The notes beneath the pieces are model-generated. The model ran no database searches and was not told the DNA's origin. It saw only the letters and a list, made by a program, of their open reading frames with translations. Positions 40,950 through 64,000 of a DNA stretch of 64,000 nt are shown piece by piece. A program made the translations under genes and the position numbers. The first letter of the stretch is position 1. The number at the start of each line of letters is the position of its first letter. The stretch comes from Convolutriloba macropyga. Taxonomy: Eukaryota. The DNA is taken from NCBI RefSeq assembly GCF_964194025.1, contig NC_134479.1, positions 25,916,001-25,980,000 of the forward strand. Direction: 5' to 3'.

Positions 40950-43211
40950 GTGGTAAAGCTTGGATGTCTTGCTCATCATCTGTGTTAAATCTGTCGAGTG
41001 TATTCAGTGACAGTGTTGGAGTTGCGGGCATAGAGTTTCGTCGTTGCTGTCGTTTATTAGTTCCCATTTTTTTCTGCAGAGATGACTGTTGGTGATTTCA
41101 TGAGTTGTTTCGCGAGATTTGAAACTACTTCAGCTTTCACATGTTTCGGTACGGAAACTACTGGATTAAGAGGTAAATTGTTTCCATTAAGCGTCATGAA
41201 GTTTAATGCCATTCGTACAAAAGCTACTTTATGTTATAAATACATGAAGATGATATGTAAGGCTAAGTTTCCGATAAAGACAATGATTGTTAACAAAAGA
41301 GAAAGCTTGATGGGTACGTAAGATTTAAGTTTATCAATTATTGCTGGTTTAAATGACTTCATTTTGGTAGTAATGGGCTTTGCTAATGATAACTTTCTTT
41401 TGATCATAACGTCCAATGATTCCGTTGATAACTTTCGATTGGAATAAATGAATTCTGTGTTAACTTTCTTCAGTAAATTGAGGTTTGCGTCTGTGCTTGT
41501 TTCGTTTTTTGTAGCTCGCTTATGTTTGGCATTGAGTCAATTAAATGATCCAGTGGTGCAAGCAATTTCACATTGATTCTTTTCGCTGGAAGGTACTGAC
41601 AACTTTGTAAATCAGCTCTAATTTTAATATGGTCACTGAACATTGTATGTCCACATTATAATGTGATTCAACAGATCTTACAACCTTTATGAGGCATGTT
41701 GGTTTGTCGGCCATTCTCGTCAATACCAATCTCATTAAGAGGAAAATCACTTGAAGCTGATGTGAGTAGCCAAATTCCGTATCCAAGATTCTGTGCTCGT
41801 TCTGGGATAGGTAACACAACCTTCTCTATGTCACATATATTCAATGCTGTAAGTGCATGATGAAACTTGAGGGTTGCTAGGCACGAGGAGAATCCAAGGT
41901 GGGTTTCCCTTCTCTCGTGACAGATTCGGTATCGTAGCGATCCAAGGCAGTTGTCGTACTGGGATCTCGTCAGTACTGTTGTTTCCATCTGTCCTCCTGA
42001 GATTGCTAGGTATTCTCCTTCAATCACCCATTGTAAGGCATCAACTGAGTCTTTCTGGGGCATAGGGATTACATTTGCACAATAGACTTCAAACACTGTC
42101 TGGCTAGAGGCTAAAAGAATGGCTAGTGTCAGTAAAAGTCCGTCTTCTACTGTCGAAATCTCTTGTACAAGTTTCGCGTTGTTTATAAGAAAGTGTGTCA
42201 GTCATGGGTATTGCCAAAGTTAGACGATCTGGGGCGTTTTTTTGACTATCATGAACTGCATCAAGGATCTTTATCAAAGATTTACGAAGTACTTACGATA
42301 GCATTTATAACAATAATTCGGAAAAATTATAAAGCTGCTCGATAACTTTTAATGTCTGCATAAAGTGTAAGAAGTAATGATGCTGCTGTGTCAAAATTAA
42401 ATTTATTTCGGTGCTGCGTTGCTTGAATTTCCATGCAGGTTGCTAATTCATTTAGATTGTGATCTACGATTGCGAATTGTTCCTCAACTAGTTTCCAGTT
42501 TCTGTTCTGGTTTTCTCGCATTTCGTTTTGAACTTTAAAAACCTTTGTAAGTTCGTCAGCAATTAGAAAGAATTTTTCGTCTGTTTCTGCGCCGTTTTCC
42601 ATGACATAGTCTTTAAGGTTAATAAAACTGTTAGCTAGTCTATCGATGTTTTCAGCATTTTGAGACGTTCGTTGGCACGAGCTGAAAATTCCTGCGATTC
42701 CACTGCATCTTCCGCTGCTCATTGCTATTCCTGGACCGGAGAGTCCAATTCCAGCAACTGCGGCAGCTATAGCAAGCGAGGCGGCTGTCTTTTTTCGATT
42801 TGGGTGTCCTCTTCGACTCTTGTAAGGAAATTTTTGGTCTCGTTCCGCAGTTTGAAGACTTCAATTTCGGCTTCAATTGTTTCATTGAGTATTTTCGTGT
42901 AAAGCCAATCAGCATTGAAAACCTCTCTTTGCTTTTCATAAGTAATACTGTGTGTCATATTGCAGAACTCTGACTTAGTAATTCATTAACTTGAGAGTTC
43001 ATGAATTAGAGTTGGAGTCTACTTGGTGTCGCACAGTAAAGTTATAGCGGGGAAACGGGACTAAAAACTCCGCGTTTATGAACTTCTCAGTGATAAGGAT
43101 CTTTCCTTCCTTGTGGAAGATTATTCCTTGGGCCGGCGTTTCTTCTGTGTTGACTGGAGTCTCAAAATTGGCGCCGAAAAGTACGAGATTTATTACGATG
43201 GTAAGTAACAT
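40950..43211 (-). pseudogene. env: Envelope / class I fusion glycoprotein (errantivirus-env / baculovirus-F-like), disrupted
   Basis: Signal peptide MLLTIVINLVLFGA; GIIFHKEGKILITE; cleavage site RKK(T) at 42,797-42,786 (one base from RKKR) directly followed by fusion peptide AASLAIAAAVAGIGLSGPGIAM; heptad helix (42,327-42,722); Cys-rich domain (41,668-42,096); TM LSLLLTIIVFIGNLALHIIFMYL; cytoplasmic tail. Confidence 0.85.
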
Positions 43212-44412
43212 TTTCGTATTTAAATAATAACAATTATGTTTCAGGACAATCTTCTGATGATGTGGCTCTTCTGGGTGTTCAACTGGTTTCTATTTGGCTT
43301 TCCGGTGTTCATTTGCTCATTTATTTAATGTAATCGGGCCTCTGGTTCTAATTTTCTCAATATGGCACTTATTTATGTGGTATTTATTTGTTTCAGGTGA
43401 ACTCTACTTTCCCACCACATGTATTGATGTGTGTGTGTTTATTAATATTACCACTAAATATGGTGTTTAAACATGCTGAAGTGTAGTTGTTTGGTTAAAT
43501 GGTGGATGTGTGATGATAGTGGTTGCGGGGGTCGAATTATGCAGTTTTTACATGTTTTTTTGAGTTTTTCAGATTATTCTGATATCAATATGTTTTTTAA
43601 TATTACTGTCGGCCCGAATAATATCACTCTGGGATGCTGCAGCAACGGGACCAGGTATGTATCAAGGAGATGGGTTCACTGGTCTCGTCTTATTCATTCA
43701 GAGTGTAATATTAATGCAATATGAAGTACAGTAATAGTTAATAGTATAGAAGATGGAAGAGATGGTTGGGACTGTGACGTAATATTGTTATTAGTATTCA
43801 TATTATTATTCATGCTATTCGGGATTATTGGGATGTGGAGAAGAAGAAGGAGGGGAAGATGTGTGGGAGGAAGGGAGGAGAGTGTGGAGATTGAAGAAGA
43901 GAAGGATGAGGGAGGAGTTGAGATGCAGGAGATGACAGTATAACTAGTTATTTATATTTTTTATTTAACTCATTGACTGACTTTTAGTTATATATACTTA
44001 GTTGTAGTTTGGATTAGTTTGTTTTAATATACTGACTAATACACTTGGTGCTATTAATAAAAAATAAGTTGCCACTAATATCATAGTATTTAGTATATAT
44101 ATCAAACTTGTTTTGTGGGGGGTTGAGGACATAATTAGGGGATAAAATGAGGCGTAATGAATAAGTAAATGTTAGTGAAGGGTGTAATTGTGTGCTCAGA
44201 GTGGTGTTGTGTGTTTTACGGCATGTGTTGTTAACTATTAGCGGTCGTTGTAGCATGGTATTTAAAAGTCCTTGGCATTTATTGCATAATTTGTTCCGCT
44301 TGTGTGTTTTCATTCCTGTGGTTGTTCATTTTTCAAGTGTCACTTTAACTTTTAGCTTGCTTGATAACTAGTTTGACTCAGTTTTTGAAATTTCAGTTAC
44401 CTATTGTTAGTC

Positions 44413-45124
44413 ATGGATGCTGCCCAGTATGAAGATTTTCTGTCTTTCGTGCGAAGAAGATCGTTTCCTCAGTCTGAATGGGTGTATCCAGCATTTGTTC
44501 GGACATTTGAGGACCGAAAAGCTTATCGGGCAAGGGTAGAACACTTGAGACTTGGAACAAAGAATGTGCGGACGTCGAAATTGGTCGTGAATCGCGAAGT
44601 ATTGGTGTAAAAAGTGGAAGTGAAGAAGGGCGATGAGGTACAAGTTCAGGAGAAGGAGATTCCAACTCAGCAGATGGTCGCTCAGGAATTGGCTCCTCTT
44701 CATGTCGGGTTCAGTGCTTCAGCGGTGCACACGACTCGTGTGGGGACGCAAGTCAATCGCTTGAAAGCTGGCGGGTTATTTCCACGTTCGATGGGTGGAT
44801 TGCAGGCCGTCGTTGAAAGGTAAATGCATATGTGTATAATAATTATGTATATTTTTATGTATTTTTCTTTAGTTTTTTGTGTTTATTATTACTTGTGGAG
44901 GGATTTGTGCTTTTTGTTCAGAGCCAATTGTGAATGCGTGCTATTTTTTCGCGAAGAAAATGCGCGGCAAAGAGGTGCATTGCACTTTTTTCTATGCGAA
45001 TCTTCGCGCAAATGTGTGTGCTGTTTTGGGGTATGAGTTCTACAATGACATTTACGCTGAGTATGTCGACGTAGTGTCATTTATAACTCCAAAGTGGCTT
45101 GGTGCGGCTGCTGTTAGGGCCTAA
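44413..45124 (+). pseudogene. Antisense cargo ORF inside the element, apparently spliced; weak resemblance to integrase-type HHCC zinc-binding region
   Basis: TTTCAG acceptor at 44,391-96, ATG 44,413, ~135 codons in one frame with a single stop (44,608), AAG|GTAAAT donor at 44,820, short AT-rich intron-like tract, then Cys-rich sequence; H-x8-H in LHVGFSASAVH. Confidence 0.4.
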
Positions 45125-46439
45125 GTTGGCGGTCTTTGTGCTCTCAGGGATCTTTACTACACGTTATTTGGTCGAAAGTCGGGTATTTATTGTGTTTTTT
45201 CGCAATTTTCATTAGTTTTGGGACTCTAATTCACATTTATTCGATTTATTGCAGTTAAGAAGGTTCCCTAATAATATTATTCGTGCATTGCGCTTGGCTA
45301 TTGTGGCCCGGATGCGTTCGCCTGGGTTCTCGGAGCTTGTGAAAGACCAGTTAGGATAATCTGTGTCTGAGTATGAGATTGCTGAGAGTGAAGACAATGG
45401 ATCATTGGCCGAGTTCTGGGTAAATTATACCTTCAATACGTGGTAATTCTGGTACGAGAATGTGTAGGTAGATGTAATCTGAGGTTTTGTTGTTTAGTTT
45501 GTTGGTATGGCGTATTTCCGTGGATGCAATGTCAATATCTATTGGCAGTATAATGAGGAAATGGCGGTGGGCTGGGTATGCTACAGGCATTCTGTCAAAG
45601 CTAAGGCCACCGCTCCGGCTGTACTGATCCAACAATTCATCAACAATTCATCGACAATGAGTATCGGTACCATTGTGCGCCAATTGTGGACTTTCCGAAG
45701 TGATTATTTAACTGTTTTTGTGCAGAATTAATCGATTTTTAGTGCAATTTTGAGACAATTTATTCACTTTCATGCCCTTTAAACAGGTTGGATGAAGTTG
45801 AGAGGTACGTGACTTGTTCTAGTAAGGCAAGGGGTCATGCCGTTCAGAGTACTAGTGGTGGTGGTACTGTGGCTCAGGATAACGCCGATGAGAATTAACT
45901 AGTGTAGGTGCAATTGTATTCATCATGTAGCTTAGTTTTATTTATAGGTGAGTTTTTACTTATTATTTGTCGATTATAGCCTTGATAATTGGTTTTTACT
46001 GCTGGAAGTAGGAGCTTTGGTGTATGTGAGCATGTGGTAATGTTTTAATTGCGGTGTATAACTATATAATGACATATTTGTGAAAGTGCCAGAATGGTGA
46101 TATAATGACTTTTTTTTTCATTTTTGAGCATTAACTTTGCTTTACTTATGAAATATGGGTCTTAGACTGGTTCTAAGGGCTCTAAACACTTGCGCTAGTT
46201 GTTTGCGGCACTTGCCTTTTTGTGTAATATGAACTGGTTTGAGAGAATCTAATTTTCACATGTAATTTTTTTTCGTAATTTAGGTAATTTTTCTGCATCA
46301 AACTGGTGTTACATATATGTGAATTTTTCAATTTTTATTGAAATTTTAGCAAATTTTTTGGCTTGGCCCACTCGATAGACATTGGGGAACAATTAAGCTT
46401 TAAATTTAGGTTTTAGGACACTTTGCGGTCAATTTTTTT

Positions 46440-48790
46440 ATTCATGTGTGAGAAGTCGAAAAATGCGAAATTTCAGGCAGCCCAGCGTCACGCGATTTTT
46501 AAGTTGCTCCAATCGGGCTCAAAATTGGCAGACTGCTTCAGCGGCTCAAAAAATGCTGCAGCAAAAAAAATTTGGCGAAGTTTGAGCATTTTTCGCAAAG
46601 TTATGATTTTTCGCAAAGTTATGACTATTTTCGTGATCGGAACCTGGCTATTTTTGAATCGTCAAATTTCGGGCTAAATAAGTCATCACTGTTCGTACAT
46701 TATCAATACTGTTAAATGGCACTGTCCCTGCTTGGTACTAATGTATATTACTAAACTATAAGTTTTTAAGCTATTTATTGGGTCAGAACATTGATTTTTG
46801 GATCCAAAATTCTAATTTTCAGGCGTGATTTTTCCACTAATTGAGCTTTTTCAAGACATGTGTCGGTCTAGTGATGCACTAGTGGCCTAAATCGGGCGCT
46901 AAATGTTAGTACTGATATCTGTGGCTATCAGGGGTAGCGTTTTGGTAGCTGTGGAGATGTTTAATTTGTGTTTTGTGCCAGTTTTTCTGTGAAATTTGGT
47001 GGATTTTTTCTTGTGATACGTGATGTTTGGTGCATAAATTGACATAGGTTGGAGATAATAGATTTTTGACGATAATTGAGGGTAACACTAGTGAGTACTA
47101 AGTTGGTGGCAGCTATTGGTGCAGTTTGATGCATGATTTGAGGTCTTTTTTTTTGAGTTTTTTAATTTAGATTTTTTGGCTAAATTTGATCAAATATGTG
47201 CAATTTTTGATTTTTTTTTTATTTTTTTCAACATTTATGAATTTTAGTGCAATTGTATTATTAGGCTTGGGCAACTAGTAGAGAGTCTGAATATTGGATA
47301 TGGGCTCATAAGTCAGCTATTTGATGCTATTTTTCTGGCTCTATTTTGACTAATTTGAGAAGAGTTTGGTAGGCTTCAGTTTTTTGCTATTATTTCAACA
47401 GTTTACTTATCAATTTTCAAAAATTTGATCAAGTTGAGCGTGTAGAGCTTGAGCCTGCGGATGTCTTAAGCTAATAATATTGGGTTTTTGATCACTATAT
47501 CAGATTCTATAAACATGTTCGTGAATTTTCAAAGAGTCTCCAAAAACAGGCAGCCCAGCGTCACGCAATTTTTAAAATGCTTCGATCGCGCTCAAAATTT
47601 AAAGATCGCTTTATCGGCTCAAAAAATCCTGCAGCGCATTGGACGGTTTCAACAATTTTTTCAAGAGCTATGACGTTTTTGCTGCAGTGAACCTGGGTTT
47701 TTTGAGAAGGCTCAGATAGGGGATAGGTTATTGGCTATGAGGTTATGAAAACCTTGTTCAAAAGGGTTGAACAGCTATGGTTGGACTGTTCAAGAGTATG
47801 TCTAACTGAATGAACAATATTATTGGGCATATTCAGGTATTAAGAAGCTTTTTTCATAACTTTTTTTTGGAAATTACACTCAATTTTTTGTGATTTTCGT
47901 TACTTTGGCAGTCTTTTCTCAGCTTGTATTGGCACTAAGGGACTGGGAGTGCATATTCTGAAAGATATGGATTTGAAAGTGCTAATGGTGTAGTTAAATT
48001 TTGTCAGAAATATTTAATTTCATCTCTAGTCGGAAATAACTGAATTTTTTTAGGCAAAATTGTGGCAATTTTAGAGCTTATTTGTGTATAAGTCTTCATG
48101 GTTGGTACTGGGCTGAGCTGGGACTGGTTCTTAAGATACTAAAAGGCTAGTGGGGAGTACACCAGGGTTGTAGAGGGCATATGTGGCATCAATCAGGTCA
48201 GGTGGGAAATAAAATGACAAAATTTTTGAAGCGGTGAATTGAAGCAGAAGCGCAATTTTCGTGTTTTTGTCATTTTTTAACATATACTTGGAAAAAATTG
48301 GTTTTAATGGTTGTTTGACGTTGTACCAAGTGGATGGCAGCTGTGAGTAACTGCTGGAGGCATTTGGGACAGTTTTTGGCATATTTATGGGGTATAATTT
48401 ACACTACAATTTAATCAATTTTAACGAAATTTGGTAGGGTTCGGTATTTTTGCCATAACTCAAGTTTTATAGATTTTTGACGGGCATTTTGGGTACTGGG
48501 ATGTCACTCGTGAGCAGTAATTTTCTAGGTCTATAAAATAGGTCAATTGGGGGTTTTTTGTAGGAGTTATCGTTGAATTCGTGCGGATTCAAAAAGTGTG
48601 AAATTTCAGGCAGCCCAGCGTCACTCAATTTTTAAAATTCTTCAAATAGCTTCAAATTTTGCATATCAATTTTGCGGCTTGAAAAACGCAGCGCAAAAAT
48701 TTGGAGTAATCGGGGCGTTTCTCACAATTTTATGACTGTTTTTCTGAGGTGAACCTAGGATTTTTGGCAAGGTCAATTTTAGGCTAAGTT
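46440..48790. repeat. Three ~200-bp modules with invariant core CAGGCAGCCCAGCGTCAC spaced ~1.07 kb apart
   Basis: Core at 46,474, 47,547 and 48,607 (fourth at 51,198 via duplication); each followed by ..TTTTAA..TCAAA.TT..CGGCT..AAAAA..GCAGC..TATGAC..GAACCT.G. Confidence 0.85.
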
Positions 48791-49027
48791 TTTGTTAATT
48801 GGAACGGGTCAGAAGGAGTCAATTATACCTGAAATCACTTTTACTGAATTAGGGCTTTTCAGAACGAACAAATAGTTCTTGAGATATATTAAAATAACTA
48901 GGTTTTAAGGTCAAAACTTTTCGAATTTTCGACAATTTTTGAAATTAGGGCTAAGTTGCTCAGGCTTGTTGGGCTTTTGGTGCAAATAGAGGGTTTTGCT
49001 AGGCTTGTACTTTGTCTGTTCGTGCGA

Positions 49028-49420
49028 ATGGATATAGATGGTTATGGGTAGGGGGTTAAAATCTAATTTATCATAGTTGCTAAATTATCATAGTTACCAC
49101 TGACGAGTTTCGGGTGTATTAAGTGTGAAATTCCTGCTTCTATTACTATTTTTCTCAGTTCATAAAGACTTGCTAATACAGTTTGTATGTGGGCTTGTAA
49201 TAGTAACTAATTTTGGTAACTAAACTGAAGATATAACGCTCAAAATATTGGTCAAAAGATATTAAAACTGAGCCAATTTTTTGTGGATATCTAAGTTTGG
49301 TTGCGCTTGGGGCTGCTGGGTAACAGCTTTTGACTTGTCGGGCTAATCCCTTTGCCATTGCAAGGTCTGCTGATATACAGCGGGCAAAAGAGTGCGGAGA
49401 GTATAAGATATCTCTTGGTG
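49028..49420 (-). pseudogene. TARG1/OARD1 (Poa1p-like) macrodomain, duplicate copy
   Basis: RDILYSPHSFARCISADLAMAKGLARQVK...RYIFSLVTKISYYYKPTY; small insertion near the GYDKL motif in this copy. Confidence 0.85.
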
Positions 49421-51637
49421 AACTTAGATATGTTGCAATTATTTCTTGACTAAAATGATTTAAATTTTAATTTGTTGACCTTGACAGAGTTTTTTGATTG
49501 AGATCTAGTTACTGGTCTAGTTCCTGTCAGTTAACATAAATTGTTCTTCATGTGTTTCTGGAGGTGATTCTATGTCAAATGGTACTATTGATGGTTGGGA
49601 CTGTTGAGCAGGTAAAAACATTCCGTCACCTGATGAAGATGATACCAGAGGAACACGAATTTCTGTTTCTTGCTGTCTAATTTCATCAGAAATTAACGGA
49701 TGAAACGGTTTTCTAGCTATTTTTTCTGCATCTAGGTTCAAGTGAGAGAGGTTTTTATCTGAATTGATAATTTCTTCAAATAAGTTGGGAATTGCTTCAT
49801 CTGAAATTGAAGAATCAAATACCGGGAGATTTACTGATGCTGTTCGTGGTCTAACTACTGGTGCTACTACCCTTGGTGGGGCCAGTGGTACTGCTGGAGG
49901 TGCTGCTGCTGCTGCTGGTCTTGCTAATGGTCCACATAGGGGAACATTTTTGTTCACTCTGACTGGGTCTTGTTTCACCGTCTTTGATTGTTGTATCTCC
50001 TTTTCTTCTTCGATTATTAATTCCGGAATATGTTTATCAAATAGATCTGGTTCAATATGTTTTCTTCTCGATGGATCAGGGTTGAAAGTTTTCATGGTTA
50101 ATGACTTCAAGGTCTTCAGGAGTTTCACTTGGTTTAATTGGTTTCAATCTGATACGATGTACATATTGTGTTTAATTCGTGTTTACTTTTCGAATGATAT
50201 AATTAGAGTCAGTGAGGACTTCTTCCACTTTATATAGCGGTAGCCATTTCTGAACTTGGGGAGTTATTACAGTTGATTGTTCTAGTAGCTTAGGGTTCAA
50301 AAGTAAACAGAGTGATTTCTCCGAAATAGGTTTAGCTGAGGCTTTTTGGTCATAGTACTTTTTTTATTTCAAGTGTGCAGTCGTCAGTTATTCTTTGTTT
50401 TCTCCAAAGTTTTGCATCATGGCGTCTTGCAGTTCATTTTAAAATCCTAATTTACTGCTACTGCATCCATTACTTGTCTAGAGAATCTAATGTCAAGGGG
50501 TTTTATTGGTTCTTTGCAATGGAATAAAGATGAAGGACAACAATTTGTTGCTGAGTGATAAGAAGTATTACGAATGAGCGTTGCTAGAAGAACATATTTA
50601 TACCAGTCTTTCCATTGTGCTTCAGTATTGAGCTTCAATATTGTTTCAGTGGTCCATGAGATCGCTCTACTGCTCCAATGTTCTGAGGGTGCTTTAGTGA
50701 GGCATGTTTTAACTTTGCTTCTAGTAAATTTGCTAATTCTGACATTAATTCTGAAGTAAATTTGTTCCTAAGTCACTAAGTATTGTTTGAGGAATGTAAC
50801 TGTGATGGAAAAACACTTTTACTAATTCTCGGGCTACTGTGTAAGCATATCCATTCGTTAATGGGACTGCAAATAGATACGTTTTGAAAACATCTAATCC
50901 ACTCAAAAGATACTTAAATTGCGAGGACTTTAGGGGGCCTACTAAATCGATTTGGAGCATATCTCCTTGGTATATTTATGGGGTATAATTTACACTACAA
51001 TTTAATCAATTTTAACGAAATTTGGTAGGGTTCGGTATTTTTGCCATAACTCAAGTTTTATAGATTTTTGACGGGCATTTTGGGTACTGGGATGTCACTC
51101 GTGAGCAGTAATGGTCTAGGTCTATAAAATAGGTCAATTGGGGGTTTTTTGTAGGAGTTATCATTGAATTCGTGCGGATTCAAAAAGTGTGAAATTTCAG
51201 GCAGCCCAGCGTCACTCATTTTTTAAAATTCTCCAAATAGCTTCAAATTTTGCATATCAATTTCGCGGCTTGAAAAACGCAGCGCAAAAATTTGGAGTAA
51301 TCGGGGCGTTTCTCACAATTTTATGACTGTTTTTCTGAGGTGAACCTAGGATTTTTGGCAAGGTCAATTTTAGGCTAAGTTTTTGTTAATTGGAACGGGT
51401 CAGAAGGAGTCAAATATACCTGAAATCACTTTTACTGAATTAGGGCTTTTCAGAACGAAAGATTTTTCCAGGTTCGAACAAATAGTTCTTGAGATATATT
51501 AAAATAACTAGGTTTTAAGGTCAAAACTTTTCGAATTTTCGACAATTTTTGAAATTAGGGCTAAGTTGCTCAGGCTTGTTGGGCTTTTGGTGCAAATAGA
51601 GGGTTTTGCTAGGCTTGTACTTAGTCTGTTCGTGCGA

Positions 51638-52010
51638 ATGGATATAGATGGTTATGGGTAGGGGGTTAAAATCTAATTTATCATAGCCACTGACGAGTTT
51701 CGGGAGTATTAAGTGTGAAATTCCTGCTTCTATTACTATTTTTCTCAGTTCATAAAGACTTGCTAATACAGTTTGTATGTGGGCTTGTAATAGTAACTAA
51801 TTTTGGTAACTAAACTGAAGATATAACGCTCAAAATATTGGTCAAAAGATATTAAAACTGAGTCAATTTTTTGTGGATATCTAAGTTTGGTTGCGCTTGG
51901 GACTGCTGGGTAACAGCTTTTGACTTGTCGGGCTAATCCCTTTGCCATTGCAAGGTCTGCTGATATACAGCGGGCAAAAGAGTGCGGAGAGTATAAGATA
52001 TCTCTTGGTG
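51638..52010 (-). pseudogene. TARG1/OARD1 (Poa1p-like) macrodomain downstream of integrase
   Basis: SFARCISADLAMAKGLA ~ TARG1 SLAHCISEDCRMGAGIA; RYIFSLVTK..YYKPTY ~ RYIYYLITK..SHKPTY; after a frameshift AGISHLILPKLVSGYDKLDF ~ [20 protein letters not shown]; terminal ITIYIH strand. Confidence 0.88.
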
Positions 52011-52106
52011 AACTTAGATATGTTGCAATTATTTCTTGACTAAAATGATTTAAATTTTAATTTGTTGACCTTGACCGAGTTTTTTGATTGAGATCTAGTT
52101 ACTGGT

Positions 52107-55100
52107 CTAGTTCCTGTCAGTTAACATAAATTGTTCTTCATGTGTTTCTGGAGGTGATTCTTTGTCAAATGGTACTATTGATGGTTGGGACTGTTGAGCA
52201 GGTAAAAACATTCCGTCACCTGATGAAGATGATACCAGAGGAACACGAATTTCTGTTTCTTGCTGTCTAATTTCATCAGAAATTAACGGATGAAACGGTT
52301 TTCTAGCTATTTTTTCTGCATCTAGGTTCAAGTGAGAGAGGTTTTCATCTGAATTGATAATTTCTTCAAATAAGTTGGGAATTGCTTCATCTGAAATTGA
52401 AGAATCAAATACCGGGAGATTTACTGATGCTGTTCGTGGTCTAACTACTGGTGTTACTACCCTTGGTGGGGCCAGTGGTACTGCTGGAGGTGCTGCTGCT
52501 GCTGCTGGTCTTGCTAATGGTCCACATAGGGGAACATTTTTGGTCACTCTGACTGGGTCTTGTTTCACCGTCTTTGATTCTTGTATCTCCTTTTCTTCTT
52601 CGATTATTAATTCCGGAATATGTTTATCAAATAGATCTGGTTCAATATGTTTTCTTCTCGATGGATCAGGGTTGAAAGTTTTCATGGTTAATGACTTCAA
52701 GGTCTTCAGGAGTTTCACTTGGTTTAATTGGTTTCAATCTGATACGATGTACATATTGTGTTTAATTCGTGTTTACTTTTCGAATGATCTAATTAGAGTC
52801 AGTGAGGACTTCTTCCACTTTATATAGCGGTAGCCATTTCTGAACTTGGGGAGTTATTACAGTTGATTGTTCTAGTAGCTTAGGGTTCAAAAGTAAACAG
52901 AGTGATTTCTCCGAAATAGGTTTTGCTGAGGCTTTTTGGTCATAGTACTTTTTTTATTTCAAGTGTGCAGTCGTCAGTTATTCTTTGTTTTCTCCAAACT
53001 TTTGCATCATGGCGTCTTGCAGTTCATTTTAAAATCCTAATTTACTGCTACTGCATCCATTACTTGTCTAGAGAATCTAATGTCAAGGGGTTTTATTGGT
53101 TCTTTGCAATGGAATAAAGATGAAGGCCAACAATTTGTTGCTGAGTGATAAGAAGTATTACGAATGAGCGTTGCTAGAAGAACATATTTATACCAGTTTT
53201 TCCATTGTGCTTCAGTATTGAGCTTCAATATTGTTTCAGTGGTCCATGAGATCGCTCTACTGCTCCAATGTTCTGAGGGTGCTTTAGTGAGGCATGTTTT
53301 AACTTTGCTTCTAGTAAATTTGCTAATTCTGACATTAATTCTGAAGTAAATTTGTTCCTAAGTCACTAAGTATTGTTTGAGGAATGTAACTGTGATGGAA
53401 AAACACTTTTACTAATTCTCGGGCTACTGTGTAAGCATATCCATTCGTTAATGGGACTGCAAATAGATACGTTTTGAAAACATCTAATCCACTCAAAACA
53501 TACTTAAATTGCGAGGACTTTAGGGGGCCTACTAAATCGATTTGGAGCATATCTCCTTGGTATGATTGTAGTGAACTGACTGGTTGCAACTTAGGTGTGA
53601 TGCTGTTTTTTGGAACTCTGTTTAATTGGAGACAAGTGAGGCAATTTTTGATGAAAATAATGAAATGTTCGGTGAAACCTGGGTATTAGAATCGCTTTAT
53701 AATTTCCTGAATTGTTGCTTTGATGCCTAAATGACTTGCTGTTTGTGAATTATGGAGCCAATATATAGTCTTTTTCCACAAATTTCTAGGTACGCAGAAT
53801 TATTTATGAAGTACTTTTCCGGTATTATAATAAAAATTCCTGTATAAACATTCCCTTCAAGAATTAATCTATTTAAATTTTGTGATACTTTTTTAAGTTT
53901 GTTGAAGCATAATTTAAGTCTGGTTGTTGATTATTTTGTTGAATCCAGCTTATTATTGTTCTAATTTGTGCATCTTTTTGCTGTTCTTCTGCTAAGTTGA
54001 GGCTAATTAAGTTGTCTGTAATGTCTGGGAACTCATCTAATGGATTTGGGTACTGAATTGAGTTTATTTCTTGCTTTCTTTTAAGTTTAAATAGCCCATG
54101 AAATTCTGTAATGGGAAAATTAGTTTTTTGTTGAAGCCGAGTTTTTTAAGTACATCAAGTTCGTCACTATTATTTTCATCACTAAAGTTTTCAAAATGAT
54201 GTAATACATTCAGTTCAAAATCAGGATTTTGTGCTTCTGTATCAATTTCTATTTCTCTAACAGGAATTCTATCTGTTAGTTTTAAAGACATTGTTGCTGT
54301 TTTGTCATTCTCCATTCGGGAGAGAAAATCTGCGGCATAATTAGCGCGTCCTGGAATGTGAGCAATTACTATGTTAAAGGCAAGTATTCTGTCTATACAA
54401 TTCCAAAGTGATGGCGGTATTACTTTTGACTGAAAGATTTGTGTACGCCTTTCGTTGTCAGTAAATATAATTACTTGTTTGCTTCATCCCCAAATATAGT
54501 GCGAAAAGTAGTCCAGCGCGTAGTACAAAGCTAAGAACTCTTTGAGAATTAACTCTCTGAATAAATTGAGAACTTTAATTTCGTTGCATTAAACAAATGC
54601 GATCCAAACGATACGGGAGCGTATGTTTTCTTTTCTTTCTTTACTGTTTTGTTTACTTAAGTTGCTCAAAGAGGTGATTTTATCCTGATGATTACATTTT
54701 GGGTCTAATCTTTCCATTTCTTGCAGTTTTAACAGTTGCTCATATATTTCTCTATGCAAGGGCGACAAGTTTGACGGATCTGGGCATGTTTCAGGCGTTA
54801 GAAACCACAATTTTTCATATTTTGAAGCCGGCTTTGCTGGTTGAGCTCTTCTTTTTGGCGTATCTGTGACTTGGATTTGTTGATTTATTTCTGTTAGGTA
54901 ATTTTTAGTCATTTTTTGCAACATTTATTAATTGACGATCTATTTCTAAGAACTGTTTAGCTTGGCCTGATGTTAAAAATGAAAATTTGGCTATTTCTTT
55001 GCCTTTATTTATGGTAACTTGGTGTTCAGTAATGTTCAGGACATAGATGTAAAGGATATTATTTTCAGCAATTTTACTTAAAGAGGACGTTAATATTACT

Positions 55101-55690
55101 TCGCTATCTTTTTCAAAGATTTCATTTGGAGTTATTACGCCGCAAAGTCAGTAAATAATTCTAGTTTGTCGTGAAGCTTGCATTCTATTAGTGCTTGTTG
55201 GTTTGGCTGTAAAACTTGTTTTTTTCTCTGTATAAACTCCAAATTTTTTACGTTTTACTACTCTTCTGGGTTGCTTTTCTGGCTTTAATTCATTTATTTG
55301 CAGAATTTGCTCAGGGAATTTAATGTAGCTTTGTCCTGGGCAGATACTAACTTTATGTTTAATGAAGAATGGGTTGCCTAATATTGCCGGAGTTGTGACA
55401 ATTAATACAAGGAAGTCTTCAGTGAATGTGTGTGTTCCCAATTTAAATGTAACTTTAATTGCTTTATCAATTTTAACTATATTACCGTTTGCCATTTTAA
55501 CTTTATCTAGATCTGGCTTTTCAGTTTCTGTTATTGAGTTGATATTTGTGTTATTAAGCTCCTTGTAAAACTCACGACTTATCACGATGGCAAATGTTCC
55601 TGTATCAATTAGTGCGCGTCTATCTAATTCTCCATTAAAATTAATTTTAACATAGGATAATGTTCTGCCTAAAAGTGGGACAATACTAAA
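52107..55690 (-). pseudogene. pol: pol remnant: aspartic protease, RNase H, integrase, Pro/Ala-rich linker; RT domain deleted
   Basis: RALIDTG (~55,618-55,598); KEFLALYYALDYFSHYIWG..IFTDN..HIPGRANYAADFLSR (54,545-54,320); LHNSQTASHLGIKAT..CLTC; LQIDLVGP..GLDVFKTYLFAVP..ILSDLGTN..ERSHGPLK; no RT motifs between the protease region and RNase H (junction ~54,655). Confidence 0.9.
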
Positions 55691-55699
55691 TAGTTGCTA

Positions 55700-57161
55700 A
55701 ACATGTGGTACTGGCTTTGGTGCAGGTTGGGGCACTTGTGTTGGGAGTTGCACCGGTTTACTGACTTTACTTTTATTATTATTATTTTTGCGTTTTCTAC
55801 GCTTTTTGTTACTTTTACTAAAAACTGGTTCTATTACATTATCTAAACTAGGACTGGACGTGCTTTCGTTATAATAATTAACTGAGTTCTTATGCTTTTT
55901 ATTTTGTTGAGTGGTTTTATTACTTTTTTTGTTGACTAAATGGATAATTCATACCTCTCATATTTCTATTCTGACGTGCACCTGCTCGACAAAATTCTTT
56001 TGCTTTTTGCACACCGTATCGGTCTTGTGCTGGGCTATTCCCTGTCGAAGAAAATTTGCAGGTGTATTTTTTATTCGAAACGATAAACTGGTCTATTAAT
56101 ATAAGCTTGGTGAACAAATGGAGGGCTATCTGAAGGTTCTGTCCAATTTTTCCGAGTTTGTGGCTGTTCATTATGATAAAATGGTCTAGGGGCATTAAAT
56201 TGTGGTCTAAATTCTCGGTAACTATTAACACGACGGGAATACTGCAGATGGGGCCGATAGTGTTGCTGAAATTGACGACAATTGGGCTGATATTGGTAAT
56301 AATTTGGTCGATAATTTTGATATTGGGGGCGGAAATTTTGTCTATAACTTTGTTTGTAGACTTGTTGTGGGTACTGTGTTGTGAAGATGTTTACTGGGCC
56401 TTGTTCTAGTGGTTCATTTTTAAATGTTGTTCTCTTATCAAGTTTTTGTTCAAGTTCTTTTTGGTTATTTGAAATGACTGTTATTGCTTTTAACATTTTA
56501 TCAGTGTTTTCTTTCTGTTATTTCATTAAAACCGTCGTCAAAATACTATTCTCTATTACACATCTCCCTTATTGCAATTTGTTGGCTCGCTAAGGTACAT
56601 AACTGATCAATTGTATCAGTATTTGGCCTTTCTAACAGCTTAGGTTTAAGCCAGTTTGGCATAGACTTAATAAAGAAACGCTTTTTTTGTTCGTTTTTTC
56701 GATTTTCTGATGTTTCAAGGGCAGCATCTCTTGCAGCTCTCTCTCTTTCAAATCTGCGAGCCTATGGGTCACCTGCTCCTGCTGGCGCTACTACTAATTC
56801 GGGTATTGGGTATGATTTATTTGCTTCTGTTCTCAACTTTACTAAGAAGTTTTTTACTGTATCTGTTTTTGGGTAAAATTTTGATTCTCTAACTTTATTA
56901 TTCTGATTTCTCTCAAGAAGTCTTGCGTGAATCTATTTGTTAGAGCTGTCATCTTGTCTTCAACAGCTAGTCTGGTAGCCTCTGGTAAGGTTAAGAAGTA
57001 TCGTAAAGCATCTCCTTTTAAATGAAACTGCAAAAATTCTTTTGTTGCGCGCCTGCGACTGATACGACTCCGATTGCACCTGTTATTAAGTAATCGAACT
57101 CGCTAAAATTATCCGTTTCTGATCCAGAAAAGGGTGTGGTGTTGATTTGCGCGTGTGTCAT
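55700..57161 (-). pseudogene. gag: gag remnant of nested element
   Basis: ATG at 57,161: MTHAQINTTPFSGSETDNFSEF...FLQFHLKGDALRYFLNLPEATR (Gypsy capsid-like); Q/N/Y/P-rich segment 56,071-56,496; decayed Zn knuckle ~56,060. Confidence 0.8.
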
Positions 57162-58388
57162 TTTGCTTTTTACCCAATTCGATTATATACTTAACGTTCA
57201 ATCAGTCTTACTTTGGTTCTCAGTTATTAAATAGCACATTTAACTTAACTTAATGGGGAGGTTGAGTGGCTTTAAGAGATGGAAAAGATTAAATGAATAA
57301 CACAAGAATATCAGGAAAGAAACTACTGAAACCATTCGTTCAGAAAATAATAAAGATGGGCTGCTTATGAACCTATTCCTAAAGCTCCGGTCAACTCGTC
57401 AGACTTATATCGTTGAAGCCGTATGGGCCGCCGAAGTCTCACCTCTAAAAAGTGCCCCTTAGTCTAGGAAAATTCGTGGAAACCACGACCGCACATGCCA
57501 TTTGGAAGCTCCAATATGGTAGGCAACAGCATATTGACCGAAGTCACTGTTTGATTCATTAACCTCCGGAGCTGGGTGTGGAACTAAATATAATTATTTT
57601 TAATTTTCTATGTAAACTTTTGTTTTGCCCTCTTTTAATTAATGTTTATGTTATGGTTTCAGTAATTCAGCTTCTTCTGGTGTTATCTGATAATCAGTAA
57701 TGATGTTGTCAAGGTTAATTTCTTTATCAGATTGAAGTTAGTTACGAATAAGGCCAAATTTGCGAGATTTCTTATTTAAACTTTTTTGCTGTCCAATAAA
57801 TTGCAACACCTTTGTCATCTTTATCTAGCACATAAGTTACGATGGGTATACAAACTGAAGAAGAGAAAGTGGTTACTATCTGAGCTTGCGTTTTGTTACT
57901 GTTTTGCGTGTAGTTAAAATTATTTCGATCAATATGTTCAACAAAATTGGGGAAGCGCGACAATTATTGATAGCGGGCAGAATTTGTTCTTTATAAATTG
58001 ACATAAATAAAGCACCAAAGATTAATTTTACAAATTCATTTACTCACAACATGCTCATTTGTAAATACCCTGTGTTGTTTTTGTCCGTTGTGGCGGCTGT
58101 GGTTGAGTTTGTTCCAGATATTGCCCACTCAAACACTTTTGAATTGTTATTGCATTTAGTCCACAAAGACACAAACACAGTTTTCACCAATTCTTTCCTT
58201 TGTTATCGCTTTTCGCATTATCGTCTTGCTCGGAAAGGGAGAACTGGATGCTGGTTCTTGATGATTGAAGGTTCTTAAGGTAATGAAGAGGAAGAAGACA
58301 AAGAAAATGTCGAAAAAAGGAAGAAACTATCGAAATTATCAAGGAATTATTCGGAATTTTGGTCCGTTAAACTGGGAAACAGTTAATA

Positions 58389-58401
58389 ACTCCTGTCACC
58401 A
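58389..58401 (-). promoter_or_regulatory. Primer binding site, tRNA-Leu-like
   Basis: Minus strand TGGTGACAGGAGT immediately after the LTR; 12/13 match to the complement of the eukaryotic tRNA-Leu(CAG) 3' end (TGGTGTCAGGAGT, from recall). Confidence 0.7.
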
Positions 58402-59241
58402 TGTTAAGCCATGACTTTTAGAAGATGTTTTCATGGTGTTATTGAGACAAATTATAGAAATAACGGGGCAGATTTACTGTCATTTTTCAAGGACTTATTT
58501 TGATGTTTCACAGTGCATTTTTTAGCGGATAAATTTTTAAATAAAGTTAGCTAGAAACAGCCTTTTAATGAGCGGTTCGGATGCGCAATATATTCACTAG
58601 TTGCCTTGGTTTTTAGAGCTTTGTTAGTACTAATTTCAACTCTAATGAAGTCGGCTCAAACTTTGAGTTTTCGAAAGAATTTCCAGTTCAATCTTTTAAT
58701 ACTATGCAAAAAGAACAAAAGTAAAGTTTCAATGATAGAAAGAAGGTTTTCTGAGTTTATTATCAACTGATCTCTGTGTAGGTTCTCCGGTGTTCTGGTC
58801 CCTGTGGGTTCCGTAGGACTGTGCCTCGAGTTGTATTGGTCCTCCGCAAATGTTTACTAATCTACAAGTTTTGTACGTCTCTTGATGTTTGTTAAGTACA
58901 TATACAAGTTCCGTATTAGCACCTGCTTTATCAGAATAATTACAGAACCAAGTACATAATCTCTCGAGAAGTTTTTTACTAATTATCCGAATTTATCTTC
59001 AAGTAACTCAAAAAAGTAAAAAGTGAGGCTTTTAGGTCTTTGATATGTTTATCAGTAAACTGTCAATCTACGGTTATTTTTCATAAACATATACAAATAG
59101 GGGGTTACAGGCTTATATGGGAACACTAGCTATATATGGCCCTGAGATCTATTTGAATTTGAACTAAATTAAAGCACTTATTTATGGATATTTAAAGGAA
59201 TATCATCACGTAACTATGAGGAATGAAATAGGGGCGTGACC
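58402..59241 (-). repeat. 5' LTR of nested minus-strand element (840 bp)
   Basis: TGTTAAG..ACTTTTAGAAGATGTTT ... AATAGGGGCGTGACC; collinear with 39,737-40,352. Confidence 0.92.
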
Positions 59242-59312
59242 TATTGTTACTATTACTATCAACAAGAAAAGTTGCAAATTTCACAAATCTTCCTTTGTCG
59301 CAACAAGGGGTA

Positions 59313-59686
59313 TGTGATACCCGTGGATCTCCTGCATTTCATTTATTTTTTTGGTGCAGTAAAATTTCATATGATGTATTTATTTAGCTCAATTTGTTTG
59401 CCCTTCTTTAACCTTTCACGTTTGATCATTCTATGTCTCGAGTTGTTCTATTGCATCCTTTCCTGGTTTCTCGCTTCGTGATAAGAAATATCTGAGCACA
59501 CATTTCTTAGTTGCTTACAAGCACTTGAATTTATAGAATCATTTTCGTAATTCAATTTCAGTTGTCTTTTCTTGGTAAACTCGCTCGACAAGTCAAGGTA
59601 ACGTAATTAAGCTTGGATTTCGTTCAACAATTCATAAAATCTTAAATTGTTTGTTAACTCGCACTGCAAGTGATCACCGAATTTCA
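59313..59686 (+). repeat. LTR 2 of + strand family (3' LTR of first element, shared as 5' LTR of next unit)
   Basis: PPT-like CAACAAGGGGTA before, TGTGATACCCG start, ATTTCA end, PBS-like TAGTGTACAAC after. Confidence 0.88.
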
Positions 59687-62600
59687 CTAGTGTACAACAA
59701 AGATGCGGAGACAAGCACAGGGAAGATATGCAAAAGTAAAGCAGATTTGTTGACATATCTCAATCTGGGAATCGAGGGTTGGAAAATTTTTTGTTCTCAT
59801 GATATGATATAAAAGATTCGATGAAAACAAAGGAGCTGTGAACCATTCTTGACACTTTTTTGACACAAAAAGACATCAAAGAAAGACCATTTAAAGAGTT
59901 AAAAGATCTCTACGAGAATTGTCCCATAATTGTGACGTAGGAAGATTTCATTAGCCGCGATTTTTTTGGCTGGCATATTTGATAGGGAACTTCGATGCGA
60001 GCGAACTTCTAGAACACTATTGAAACAAAGCGGGCTCTTAAAATAGCAAAAATGAGGTTGGAATACAAAACGCACTGCAGTTATCGGGAACGTCACAATA
60101 TACAAGATTAAAGATATACACCCGAACCACCCAGGTACTTGGGGAATGATCTGTATGGCCACGCTTTGCTGGTGGCCCTAGATGAATCGAGAACTCGTTG
60201 CCAAAGCGACAGAGTACAAACCTTGCACTACAATTGGTAAGAATCTAAAATGTGTAATTCCTGCTAAGCAAATTCGACCTCATATACCATGTGTTGAACC
60301 GAATCAAGAAATGCAAATTGATTTTGTAGAACCTAGTTTTGACGAAAAAGGCAATGAAGTCTATTTCTTAGCTTCTATAGACTATTTCTCTAAATATCCT
60401 ACGGCAAGTATAATTGAAAAAGCTAATGGACCAAAAGTTTTGAAATTTTTGACAATGTCCATCAAAATTCGTGCAATCCTCGCTCTAATCGACTTGACCA
60501 ATCAAAATGTTTAGATGGAAATCAGGTAAAGACCTTTTGTAGTAGAAATGATATTGAAATCACTGAAGTTCCGGTTAATGATCATTGTGCTATTGGTGAA
60601 GTAGAAAGATTATTTCAAACGATTAAGAATGGACTGGCATGTATCAAAGATGAGAAATCGATAGATAACGCATTTCAAGTAAAGCATGCAGTAAGGATTA
60701 TCATTCAACAATTGCGAATTTGCAAACAGAAACCAACAATGATCTCGCCATTCAATGCGCACTTTGGCCGTAATCCTAACACCACTGTTGAGCATAATCT
60801 CCACTTAACCTAAACTGTCTTGTTTCTCATATGAGAGTATTGTAAATCACTATTTAGATGAACACAGAGTCACACCCGAGGCCATTCCCCCCCGACGATA
60901 AATGGCTGCATGGATATCGCAGCGATATTGAAGTGCAACTCGGAAGGACTCGGGCAGCGTGTGAGGCCAATGAACGAGAACAGGCGAGTGCGGATGGCGA
61001 AACACGCTTTATTCGTTCAGGCGCTTGCCGGCCAATTCCGATTACGGAGAGAGCAAAGAAACTCAAACTGGCCCTCAAAATACACGGAAAACGTAGATCT
61101 AAGAAGAATGTGGTGGACCTGTATGAGAATTGCTTGGCTCCCGGTTCAAACACCTTGAAGGTCAGCCCAACAACCTCCACTGTAAATAGCCCAGGAGACC
61201 TATAGTAACGGTACACAATAGCGACATTGCCATATTTGGTACAATTCAGGAGCGACAATCCCCTTTAAGAGTCTATGCGGATCGACGGGGGCGAAGATCA
61301 TGCCAAAACTTGTGGAAGAGCAGATTCAAAGCCACATAAAGCAAATCACCAGAAAACTTAAGGGTGATAAGAAAATGAAGCATCGCAAGCCAGAGCCTGG
61401 CAGTGGGGTTTAGTCTTCTCGTGAAAATATTTTACGCGCGATGCAAGGGCATATCCCTAAAATTCCTGATTTTCTCGCCAACCGCAACCGAAAAATTAAA
61501 ATTCAGACCAATTTGGCACACGAGTTGGCTTTACCCATGCAATCGGCCATGCAATCGACAATGCAGGGCAGCAAACGTACTTCGGACAGAAACCGCGGTA
61601 GCCCATCATACTACGGTTTTGACAACTCATTTTCAGAATCGACCATTGCAGCTTCACCCAAACGTTCACGCCGAGCGGGAGACGTAGAGAAGGTCCAGCC
61701 CACACCTGCATCAGTTGTCGAAACAGTACATAACATTGCCGTTCAACAGCCTGAAGAAATCAACAATTCTCCGATTATCGGAGAAGTTTCGCCACCTGCT
61801 CCGCGAGTGCAACCAATTATTGATGAGGACATCCCGACATTGGTGAGATTGATGACAGTTCTTGAAGCCGAAAACCAAGAGATTTCTGAATTGTTAATTT
61901 CGCAACCAAAACTGCGTAAACTGTAAAATTTTAGTTTAATACTATTCCATTTTTAGCTATGATAACCAGCACATATATTGTTATTATTTATATAACCGGG
62001 GACCAAGTATAAGTTTGTAAATATTGTTACTATTACTATCAACAAGAAAAATTGCTAATTTCACAATTCTTCTTTTGTGGCAACAAGGGGTATGTGATAC
62101 CCGTGGATGTTCTGCATTTCATTTATTTTTTTGGTGCAGTAAAATTTCATATGATGTATTTATTTAGCTCAAATTGTTTGCTCTTCATTAACCTTTCACG
62201 TTTGATCATTCTTTGTCTCGAGTTGTTCTATTGCATCCTTTCTTGGTTTCCCGCTTCGTGATCAGACATATCTGAGCACACAGTTCTTAGTTGCTTACAA
62301 GCACTTGAGTTTATGGATTCATTTTCGTAATTCAATTTCAGTTGTCTCTTTCTATTGGTAAACTCGCTCAACAAGTAAACGTAACGTAATTAAGCTAAAC
62401 CTAAACTGTCTTGTTTCTCATATGAGAATATTGTAAATCACTATTTAGATGAACACACAGTCACACCCGAGGCCAATCCCCCAGACGATAAATGGCTGCA
62501 TGGATATCGCAGCGATATTGAAGTGCAACTCGGAAGGACTCGGGCAGCGTTTGAGGCCAATGAACGAGAACAGCCGAGCGCGGATGGCGAATCACGCTTT

Positions 62601-63790
62601 ATTCGTTCAGGCGCTTTCCGGCCAATTCCGATTACGGAGAGAGCAAAGAAACTCAAACTGGCCCGCAAAATACACGGAAAACGTAGAAGGAGATGTTTCG
62701 CCACCTGCTCCGCGAGTGCAACCAATTATTGATGAGGACATCCCGACATTGGTGAGATTGATGACAGTTCTTGAAGCCGAAAATCAAGACATTTCTGAAT
62801 TGTTAATTTCGCAACCAAAACTGCGTAAACTGTAAAATTTTAGTTTAATACTATTCCATTTTTAGCTATGATAACCAGCACATATATTGTTATTATTTAT
62901 TTAACCGGGGACCAAGTATAAGTTTGTAAATATTGTTAATATTACTATCAACAAGAAAAATTGCTAATTTCACAATTCTTCTTTTGTCGCAACAAGGGGT
63001 ATGTGATACCCGTGGATGTTCTGCATTTCATGTATTTTTTTGGTGCAGTAAAATTTCATATGATGTATTTATTTAGCTCAAATTGTTTGCTCTTCATTAA
63101 CCTTTCACGTTTGATCATTCTTTGTCTCGAGTTGTTCTATTGCATCCTTTCTTGGTTTCTCGCTTCGTGATCAGACATATCTGAGCACACAGTTCTTAGT
63201 TGCTTACAAGCACTTGAGTTTATGGATTCATTTTCGTAATTCAATTTCAGTTGTCTCTTTCTATTGGTAAACTCGCTCGACAAGTAAACGTAACGTAATT
63301 AAGCTTGGATTTCGTTCCACAATTCTTAAATTCTAAAATTGTTTGTTAACTCGCACTGCAAGTGATCACCGAATTTCAATAGCGTACGACAAATATGTGG
63401 AGACAAGCACATGGAAGAAGTGCAATAGTAAAGCAGATTTGCTGACATATCTCAATCTGGGAATCGAGGGTTGGAAAATTTTTTGTTCTCAAGATATGAT
63501 GTACAAGATAGATAAAAACAAAGGAGCTTTGAACCATTCTTGACACTTTTTTGACACAAAAAGACATCAAAGAACGACCCTTTAAAGAATTAAATGATCT
63601 CTACGAGAATTGTCCCACAATTGTGGCGAAGGAAGATTTCTTTGGCCGCGATATTTTTTGGCTGGCATATTTGATAGGGAGCTTCGATGCGAAGGTCTAG
63701 AAAACTATTGAAACAAAGCGGGCTCTTGAAATAGCAAAAATGAGACTGGAATACGAAACGCACTGCTGTTTTCGGGAACGTCACAAAATA
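59687..63790 (+). mobile_element. Tandem array of internally deleted derivatives of the + strand Gypsy family
   Basis: gag fragment 59,700-60,110 fused to integrase-3'UTR 60,128-62,090 (homologous to 37,830-39,730); truncated LTR 62,093-62,396; 909-bp mini-unit; LTR 63,002-63,378; second gag fragment 63,379-63,790. Confidence 0.88.
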
Positions 63791-64000
63791 CACCGATTAA
63801 TTGACTAACGTAGAATAGAAAAAAAAACTTTAGCTCATTCGAAAGGTTACCTCTCTCCCAAATTTCATCATAATAGAGATCACAAGAAACAAAGACCATT
63901 GTTCTAATTGTGATAACAACCGTCACTAACATAAATGTCTAGCATATGGTAAACACTGCAAAATGAAAAAAGGCAACCAAAAAAGGGAAGAAGTTAACTA

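Follow-up and report, generated by a model that had tools for sequence, protein, structure and literature searches.

A decayed TARG1-class macrodomain behind the integrase of an env-carrying, probably Ty3/gypsy-type LTR element

Our analysis of a 64,000-nucleotide stretch of the Convolutriloba macropyga genome (contig NC_134479.1; hereafter the window) leads us to see a short minus-strand sequence at 51638-52026 as what appears to be the decayed C-terminal domain of a Pol polyprotein that belonged to an env-carrying Ty3/gypsy-type LTR element. Judged by a modelled fold and by its residues, the domain is of the TARG1 class, albeit a variant with regard to the strict sequence pattern published for that class, and in active members of the family it is most likely an ADP-ribosylhydrolase that would work through the TARG1 Lys/Asp pair, as fold, residues and constraint suggest. 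The locus itself is dead: both macrodomain copies in the window are non-functional and neither can yield an enzyme. Its value is that of a pointer to a family, and to our minds the part worth following is the recurring fusion between integrase and a TARG1-class domain, at the position of a chromodomain, rather than the pairing with env in which an earlier note on this DNA, made from the letters alone, had seen the main novelty.

All four macrodomain motifs named in that note lie where it had put them, on the minus strand and split over two frames. The first piece (51775-52026), supported by motifs, a structure-database match and a profile, runs from strand 1 to KPTY and includes the Cys-x-Ser loop together with the catalytic Thr-Lys motif, with CISADLAMAKGLA at 51931-51969, LVTK at 51802-51813 and KPTY at 51775-51786; its start near 52026 falls slightly beyond the 52010 given earlier. 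The second piece (51638-51775), supported by motifs and profile, continues in the other frame with the G-x-D motif and a last helix that is partly absent, PKLVSGYDKL being found at 51674-51703 and the terminal PLPITIYIH at 51638-51664. Both frames meet near 51775, just past KPTY. The positions equivalent to the catalytic Lys84 and Asp125 of TARG1 are retained, as had been read from the letters, each on its own piece (51802-51813 and 51674-51703). The note had reckoned with one frameshift and the frame change is indeed there, but the damage goes further. Compared to natural relatives, with which the first piece shares 77-80% identity, the last helix of this copy is about 12 residues short and some 130 residues have gone from the linker, a loss that cuts the macrodomain off from the integrase; in the window copies the place of TARG1 His32 is taken by another residue. 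Also missed was a recent 2.6 kb tandem duplicate (48376-50973, minus strand; 97.6% identical to 50967-53563) that, by sequence comparison, repeats part of the integrase core, the integrase C-terminus, the linker and the macrodomain. Its macrodomain (49028-49436, minus strand), traced by profile and comparison, is more broken: it shares the frame change, and 20 nt are additionally inserted within its G-x-D loop.

That the feature is not a product of chance follows from two lines of evidence. A PDB search with the 97-aa first piece gave five matches, each of them human TARG1/C6orf130 (E 0.006-0.008), and a profile built from 62 macrodomains, excluding the macrodomain family of this element and three sister rows, scored the first and second pieces at 65.7 and 27.6 bits, far above the best scores in ten shuffled windows (4.9-11.2 bits). 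Run over 2134 six-frame pieces of the window, this profile found the copy at 51.6-52.0 kb, the one at 49028-49436 and nothing else. The Pfam Macro model (PF01661) did not match the window pieces at E≤0.01.

To judge the domain in its undamaged state we turned to natural proteins. A protein search (171-2000 aa) brought up 64 candidates. Of these, 26 are close relatives, most of them 74-89% identical, and in 14 of the 26 the macrodomain is complete in one ORF. P0009 aligns with TARG1 end to end (E 9e-14), TK and GxD being in register. Our fold evidence comes from the model of a natural relative, P0001, and not from the broken window copies: residues 314-463 were modelled with a pLDDT of 89.9, and in Foldseek the first eight ranks all went to human TARG1 (TM 0.78-0.84, best rmsd 1.5 A), followed by DarG at ranks 9-12 and, at lower ranks and with 11-14% identity, by alphavirus macrodomains. 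Together with the PDB matches of the first piece, this bears out the TARG1-class identity that the note had proposed. According to PMC6397177, K84 of TARG1 is the nucleophile and D125 serves hydrolysis, while H32, C33, S35 and T83 line the distal ribose; a K84A exchange abolishes TARG1 activity on thymidine-ADP-ribose (PMC8501950). Among the full-length close relatives, the catalytic Lys is found in 13 of 14 and the Asp in 14 of 14. The T, K, G and D positions are likewise kept in all five sister rows and in all 12 other retroelement rows that could be aligned. As for the distal-ribose positions, 24 aligned close rows keep H in 20, C in 20, S in 21 and T in 21, with three rows gapped at the first three; the Ser35 position is Ala in seven of the 12 other retroelement rows.

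It is with respect to the phosphate loop that the family departs from its class. The pattern TKx(30,35)Px[IL]GxGxD, published for TARG1 (PMC6397177), fits none of the 26 close relatives, because their first phosphate-loop Gly is Ala, while the strict pattern is present in 5/6 sister rows, 4/14 other retroelement rows and 97/124 remaining matches. If G, A or S is allowed for this first Gly, the numbers become 12/26 (close), 5/6 (sister), 14/14 (other retroelement) and 117/124 (remaining). Since Ala also occupies this position in 20 of 127 other matches (a count that includes two rows later dropped), we infer from the sequences that the exchange is probably tolerated. Pfam Macro misses all 26 close relatives at E≤0.01; sister P0049 passes it with 25 bits (cut-off 22), and by a hand count about 100 of the best 150 among 1878 matches pass at E≤0.001.

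The earlier placing of the domain behind the integrase is corroborated by three natural relatives (P0013, P0014, P0016) in which a single ORF leads from the integrase C-terminal domain (Integrase_p58_C, E ~0.001 and below the curated cut-off) through a low-complexity linker of about 320 aa to a complete macrodomain, where it ends. In P0013 this linker measures 319 aa, of which 66% are P/E/S/K/R/Q/A/D. Sister P0049 extends from the end of the integrase core through to the macrodomain, and P0062 unites protease, reverse transcriptase, RNase H, integrase and macrodomain (PR-RT-RNase H-IN-Macro) in 1699 aa. A full-length Pol of the macrodomain family studied here was not among 135 candidates of 812-2315 aa, which is weak evidence of absence, and the link to reverse transcriptase therefore rests on other lineages.

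Both macrodomain copies of the window sit inside one decayed LTR element of 19.5 kb (39737-59241). It is bounded by a 5' LTR (58402-59241) and a 3' LTR (39737-40351), both on the minus strand and 92-93% identical to each other in two blocks; a primer-binding-site-like TGG... stretch (58390-58401, minus strand) comes after the 5' LTR, and a 5-bp target-site duplication (left half 39732-39736) recurs at 59242-59246 with one mismatch, its 5-mer being present once in empty sites of the same target repeat at ~62022 and ~62931. Along the minus strand there follow gag-like remnants (55923-57102), which we assign from position and composition and which have no Pfam gag match, an aspartic protease remnant (55151-55696; Pfam Asp_protease_2, 28.3 bits, cut-off 24.3), a probable tail of the RNase H/connection region recognised by eye from its translation (54067-54483), and integrase remnants in several frames that comprise zinc-binding region, core and C-terminal domain (52669-53930; Pfam rve, E 4e-4 at 53338-53685; tblastn with P0014, P0049 and P0062). 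Next come the shortened low-complexity linker (52110-52733), which was recognised by comparison with relatives and whose frame differs from that of the macrodomain, then the macrodomain, the tandem duplicate, a gap of about 5 kb and an F-type envelope gene in seven pieces (40933-43211) with 72-88% identity to residues 1-762 of P0183. Within 39737-59241 no reverse transcriptase was detected by tblastn with the RT-RNase H part of P0062, which matched only the neighbouring element (35652-36530). Of the features expected of an env-carrying Ty3/gypsy element, the locus presents two LTRs, a primer-binding site, a target-site duplication and gag-pol-env order with integrase last in Pol, but every gene of this copy is in pieces, as opposed to the intact ORFs of an active element. 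Protease, integrase (Integrase_p58_C) and domain order are what suggest the Ty3/gypsy assignment.

Two further parts of the element caught our attention. A short ORF piece after the protease (54908-55147, minus strand) has no profile match in Pfam or NCBIfam; by eye it is reminiscent of the degenerate, dUTPase-like part found in some gypsy Pol proteins. The roughly 5 kb between Pol and env (43300-48376) hold no recognised coding sequence; they may represent either an accessory gene in decay or an insertion nested here. Degenerate repeats of ~120-170 bp spaced by ~1060 bp (46448, 47521, 48581, 51172) occur here, as do protein-like ORF scraps at 44414-44710, 45215-45424 and 45405-45647, the last of which, a possible accessory ORF, shows low recognition with only unnamed clusters in Atlas and matches no Pfam or NCBIfam family.

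In line with the pairing given in the note, env and macrodomain share one LTR-bounded element, which is now dead. That the envelope is F-type is suggested by its natural relative P0183, which has an R-x-K-R furin-like site at 138 followed by a hydrophobic stretch, as well as a second such stretch that is C-terminal and of membrane type, and whose model, although modest (pLDDT 65.9), finds paramyxovirus F proteins at the top of the Foldseek list (E 1.6e-6, at low TM of 0.2-0.4). Matches to Baculo_F are weak and occur in 4/20 relatives, one being above the cut-off, and a PDB sequence-profile search gave weak matches to haemagglutinin HA2 only (E≥0.017). P0002 and P0004 are rearranged natural copies that join macrodomain and env pieces in one ORF, in the former as macrodomain then env middle and in the latter as env N-terminus followed by linker and macrodomain; these joined ORFs show internal deletions and the co-occurrence of macrodomain and env in other copies as well.

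How far does the fusion extend beyond this family? An unfiltered search returned 1878 matches at E≤0.001, and the best 150 were examined. Nine of these 150 combine a Pfam integrase domain with the macrodomain and two more are added by P0049 and P0032 (48-51% identity to the integrase of the family), giving 11 fusions that are known from protein records alone and that represent only about four lineages because most are near-copies of one family. Three of the 11, which include unrelated host domains as well, are probably chimeras produced by gene prediction; in P0086 and P0145 no integrase core lies between. The domain also occurs elsewhere in Pol, after RNase H (P0067) or before protease (P0124), placements that may be gene-prediction artefacts. 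In a quick tree of 143 macrodomains the family of this element and its sisters form one clade (SH-aLRT 97), a separate clade of nine retroelement rows has an SH-aLRT of 100, and P0062 and P0145 also stand apart from the family. An AU test on a 49-row subset, which counts among its 13 grouped rows five fragments whose fusion to integrase is assumed, did not reject one origin of the retroelement macrodomains (p 0.44), and we therefore do not claim multiple acquisitions. Another Ty3/gypsy family (P0068, P0070, P0073, P0086, P0123, P0126) shows the order integrase C-terminus, TARG1-class macrodomain, CCCH zinc finger; the zf-CCCH_3 Pfam match is weak and found in two rows, and the combination is of an RNA- or ADP-ribose-binding type. 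Furthermore, TARG1-class domains are fused to an XPG/FEN1-type nuclease, a YpsA SLOG domain or a DarT1-associated NADAR domain in P0071, P0143, P0110 and P0138, fusions that are consistent with work on nucleic-acid ADP-ribose.

Within the family, the macrodomain appears constrained relative to the linker next to it. Among 13 full-length relatives (P0002 being omitted as an env fusion), variants common to at least three rows occur in 22 of the 198 columns of the linker versus 1 of the 141 that make up the macrodomain (Fisher p 9e-5), a protein-level comparison in which the linker is a lenient yardstick and in which relatives chosen by likeness to the macrodomain bias the outcome toward its conservation. 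Singleton rates are alike at 0.41 and 0.36 per column for linker and macrodomain. Since shared variants would stem from lineages that were active, and singletons from decay once a copy had inserted, we take this difference to indicate constraint. In sister families the domain is kept at 37-53% identity while linkers cannot be aligned except for the part next to the domain.

What, then, might the domain do for an active element? We favour a scenario in which the macrodomain would form the C-terminal end of the translated Pol, tied to integrase by the long flexible linker seen in natural relatives, and in which it may be packaged and delivered along with the cDNA-integrase complex. There, the enzyme would strip the ADP-ribose that host PARPs attach to cDNA ends, to the integration complex or to chromatin at the integration gap, and thereby let integration and repair finish. 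For such packaging, hydrolase activity and removal of host-PARP ADP-ribose taken together, we see a chance slightly better than even. TARG1 is reported to remove DNA ADP-ribosylation made by PARP1 (PMC11102865). Whether a role of this kind would amount to counter-defence or to housekeeping is something sequence cannot tell. An alternative view, to which we give a minor yet real chance, sees a reader in place of an eraser: the domain would bind ADP-ribosylated chromatin or DNA breaks and tether the integrase, as chromodomains do in chromoviruses. Its place C-terminal to integrase is indeed that of a chromodomain (PMC13524379; bioRxiv 2021.11.30.470311 on MAGGY), and the long flexible linker, the altered phosphate loop of the family and the Ala found at the Ser35 position in 7/12 other retroelement rows all suit binding. 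A pure reader, however, need not keep the catalytic Lys and Asp, which are kept (13/14 and 14/14 in close rows, 17/17 in distant ones), and P0067 and P0124, if not gene-prediction artefacts, place the domain elsewhere in Pol.

The note had put forward a candidate counter-defence module. In one version of this idea, the domain would undo the antiviral ADP-ribosylation that host mono-ARTs carry out in an env-mediated infectious phase, much as RNA-virus macrodomains do. An F-type env and the macrodomain do share one element and are even joined in the rearranged P0002 and P0004, antiviral PARPs act on retroviruses (PMC7729036) and fish retroviruses also have macro ORFs (PMC4977317). Yet the domain is of the TARG1 class and far from alphavirus macrodomains (11-14% identity), no link between domain and env was established across lineages, the host is not known to restrict retroelements through ADP-ribosylation, and a title cited in PMC7729036 has it that PARP inhibition blocks retroviral infection, so PARP activity can help retroviruses. 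Counter-defence as such is hence possible but unsupported, being inseparable here from help with integration or repair and modelled on a more distant class of macrodomain, and we regard this version of it as rather unlikely. Of very low probability, to our minds, is a neutral passenger, picked up from a host TARG1 transcript through template switching and kept at no benefit. Captured host ORFs with no shown advantage do occur in LTR elements (PMC5408684) and the DNA-level copies in the window are all dead, but the in-frame fusion to integrase speaks against it, as do the constraint relative to the linker (a protein-level proxy) and the survival of the domain at 37-53% identity in sisters that have unalignable linkers and yet form one supported clade (SH-aLRT 97). 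The domain is nonetheless dispensable in general, as the neighbouring element of the window and many Ty3/gypsy elements go without it.

Returning to the eraser that we prefer, one may go further and envisage TARG1-class hydrolases as a recurring, selected accessory at the end of Ty3/gypsy Pol in several animal lineages. They would answer a hitherto undescribed restriction in which hosts ADP-ribosylate the cDNA or the integration complexes of retroelements, a counterpart in eukaryotes to the DNA modification of the DarT type; the integrase-fused eraser would then point to an unknown host writer. This extension we put forward as a speculation, more doubtful than not by a good way. If the domain is active, its being kept across diverged Ty3/gypsy families says that the effect of ADP-ribosylation on retrotransposon replication is strong enough to merit carrying an opposing enzyme, the short list of integrase C-terminal modules gains one enzyme, and there is a handle on whether PARPs restrict the integration of reverse-transcribed DNA or assist it.

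Among known systems the closest is human TARG1/OARD1/C6orf130 (PDB 4J5S, 4J5R, 2L8R), which shares the fold (TM 0.78-0.84), ~30% identity, the CIS loop and the TK, KPTY and GxD positions but stands alone, whereas here the domain is fused behind integrase, has Ala for the first phosphate-loop Gly and is broken in the window. The bacterial DarG macrodomain is next best in fold (TM ~0.8, E 1e-9) and has an equivalent catalytic Lys (PMC8501950), yet our element has no DarG C-terminal domain and no DarT partner. We rejected a DarG antitoxin identity, as NCBIfam DarG scored 23-46 bits against a cut-off of 250 and the 65 ORF pieces scanned with Pfam contained no ART gene. Alphavirus nsP3 and coronavirus Mac1 resemble our domain in macro fold and in ADP-ribose handling by a parasite; they differ in class (11-14% identity, lower fold ranks) and in being part of an RNA replicase rather than of Pol. 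Chromoviruses, too, bear an accessory domain at the integrase C-terminus, though theirs is a methyl-lysine reader and ours an enzyme-type ADP-ribose module.

Nor is a macrodomain in a gag-pol-env retroelement new, since macro domain ORFs have been reported from epsilon-like endogenous retroviruses of fish (PMC4977317, citing Basta et al. 2009); these ORFs also lie inside a gag-pol-env LTR retroelement, but one that belongs to Retroviridae, not Ty3/gypsy, and we liken them by description only. F-type env, for its part, occurs widely among the Ty3/gypsy elements of metazoans ('ancient errantiviruses', PMC13524379), which resemble ours in LTR-gag-pol-env-LTR order, F-type env, furin-like site and fusion peptide and differ in that chromodomains, not macrodomains, are reported C-terminal to integrase. 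With both partners so described and the integrase fusion recurring in other lineages, the case for the novelty that the note had seen in the env pairing is weak. The ~5 kb gap between Pol and env in our element exceeds the gap filter that this survey applied to most genomes. Its main text (searched as a whole) nowhere contains macro, ADP, OARD1 or TARG1, and in its seven text supplements 'macro' appears 10 times, the four instances listed being species names, with no macrodomain mention among them. The accessible parts of PMC4299795, PMC5512871, PMC12440569 and PMC5408684 contain no mention of macrodomains, and those of PMC7729036 none of retroelement macrodomains. A TARG1-class domain as recurring C-terminal module of Ty3/gypsy Pol was not described in the literature searched, which covered few subscription journals and lay outside Repbase and so is weak evidence of absence.

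As to the surroundings, which look eukaryotic and, from the element type, animal, positions 1-14300 are a tandem satellite of about 50 copies of a ~265-bp unit with higher-order patterning of variants, and a 200-base run of N (32461-32660) marks an assembly gap. The right half of the window is occupied by nested LTR elements. The target into which the macrodomain element inserted is a second Ty3/gypsy-like element on the plus strand (33300-39737 and 59242-63800), in which the macrodomain profile found no macrodomain. It retains RT/RNase H (35652-36794) and an integrase core (37749-38510), with further partial copies at 60106-63800, and carries a 219-bp tandem duplication at 36562-37001.
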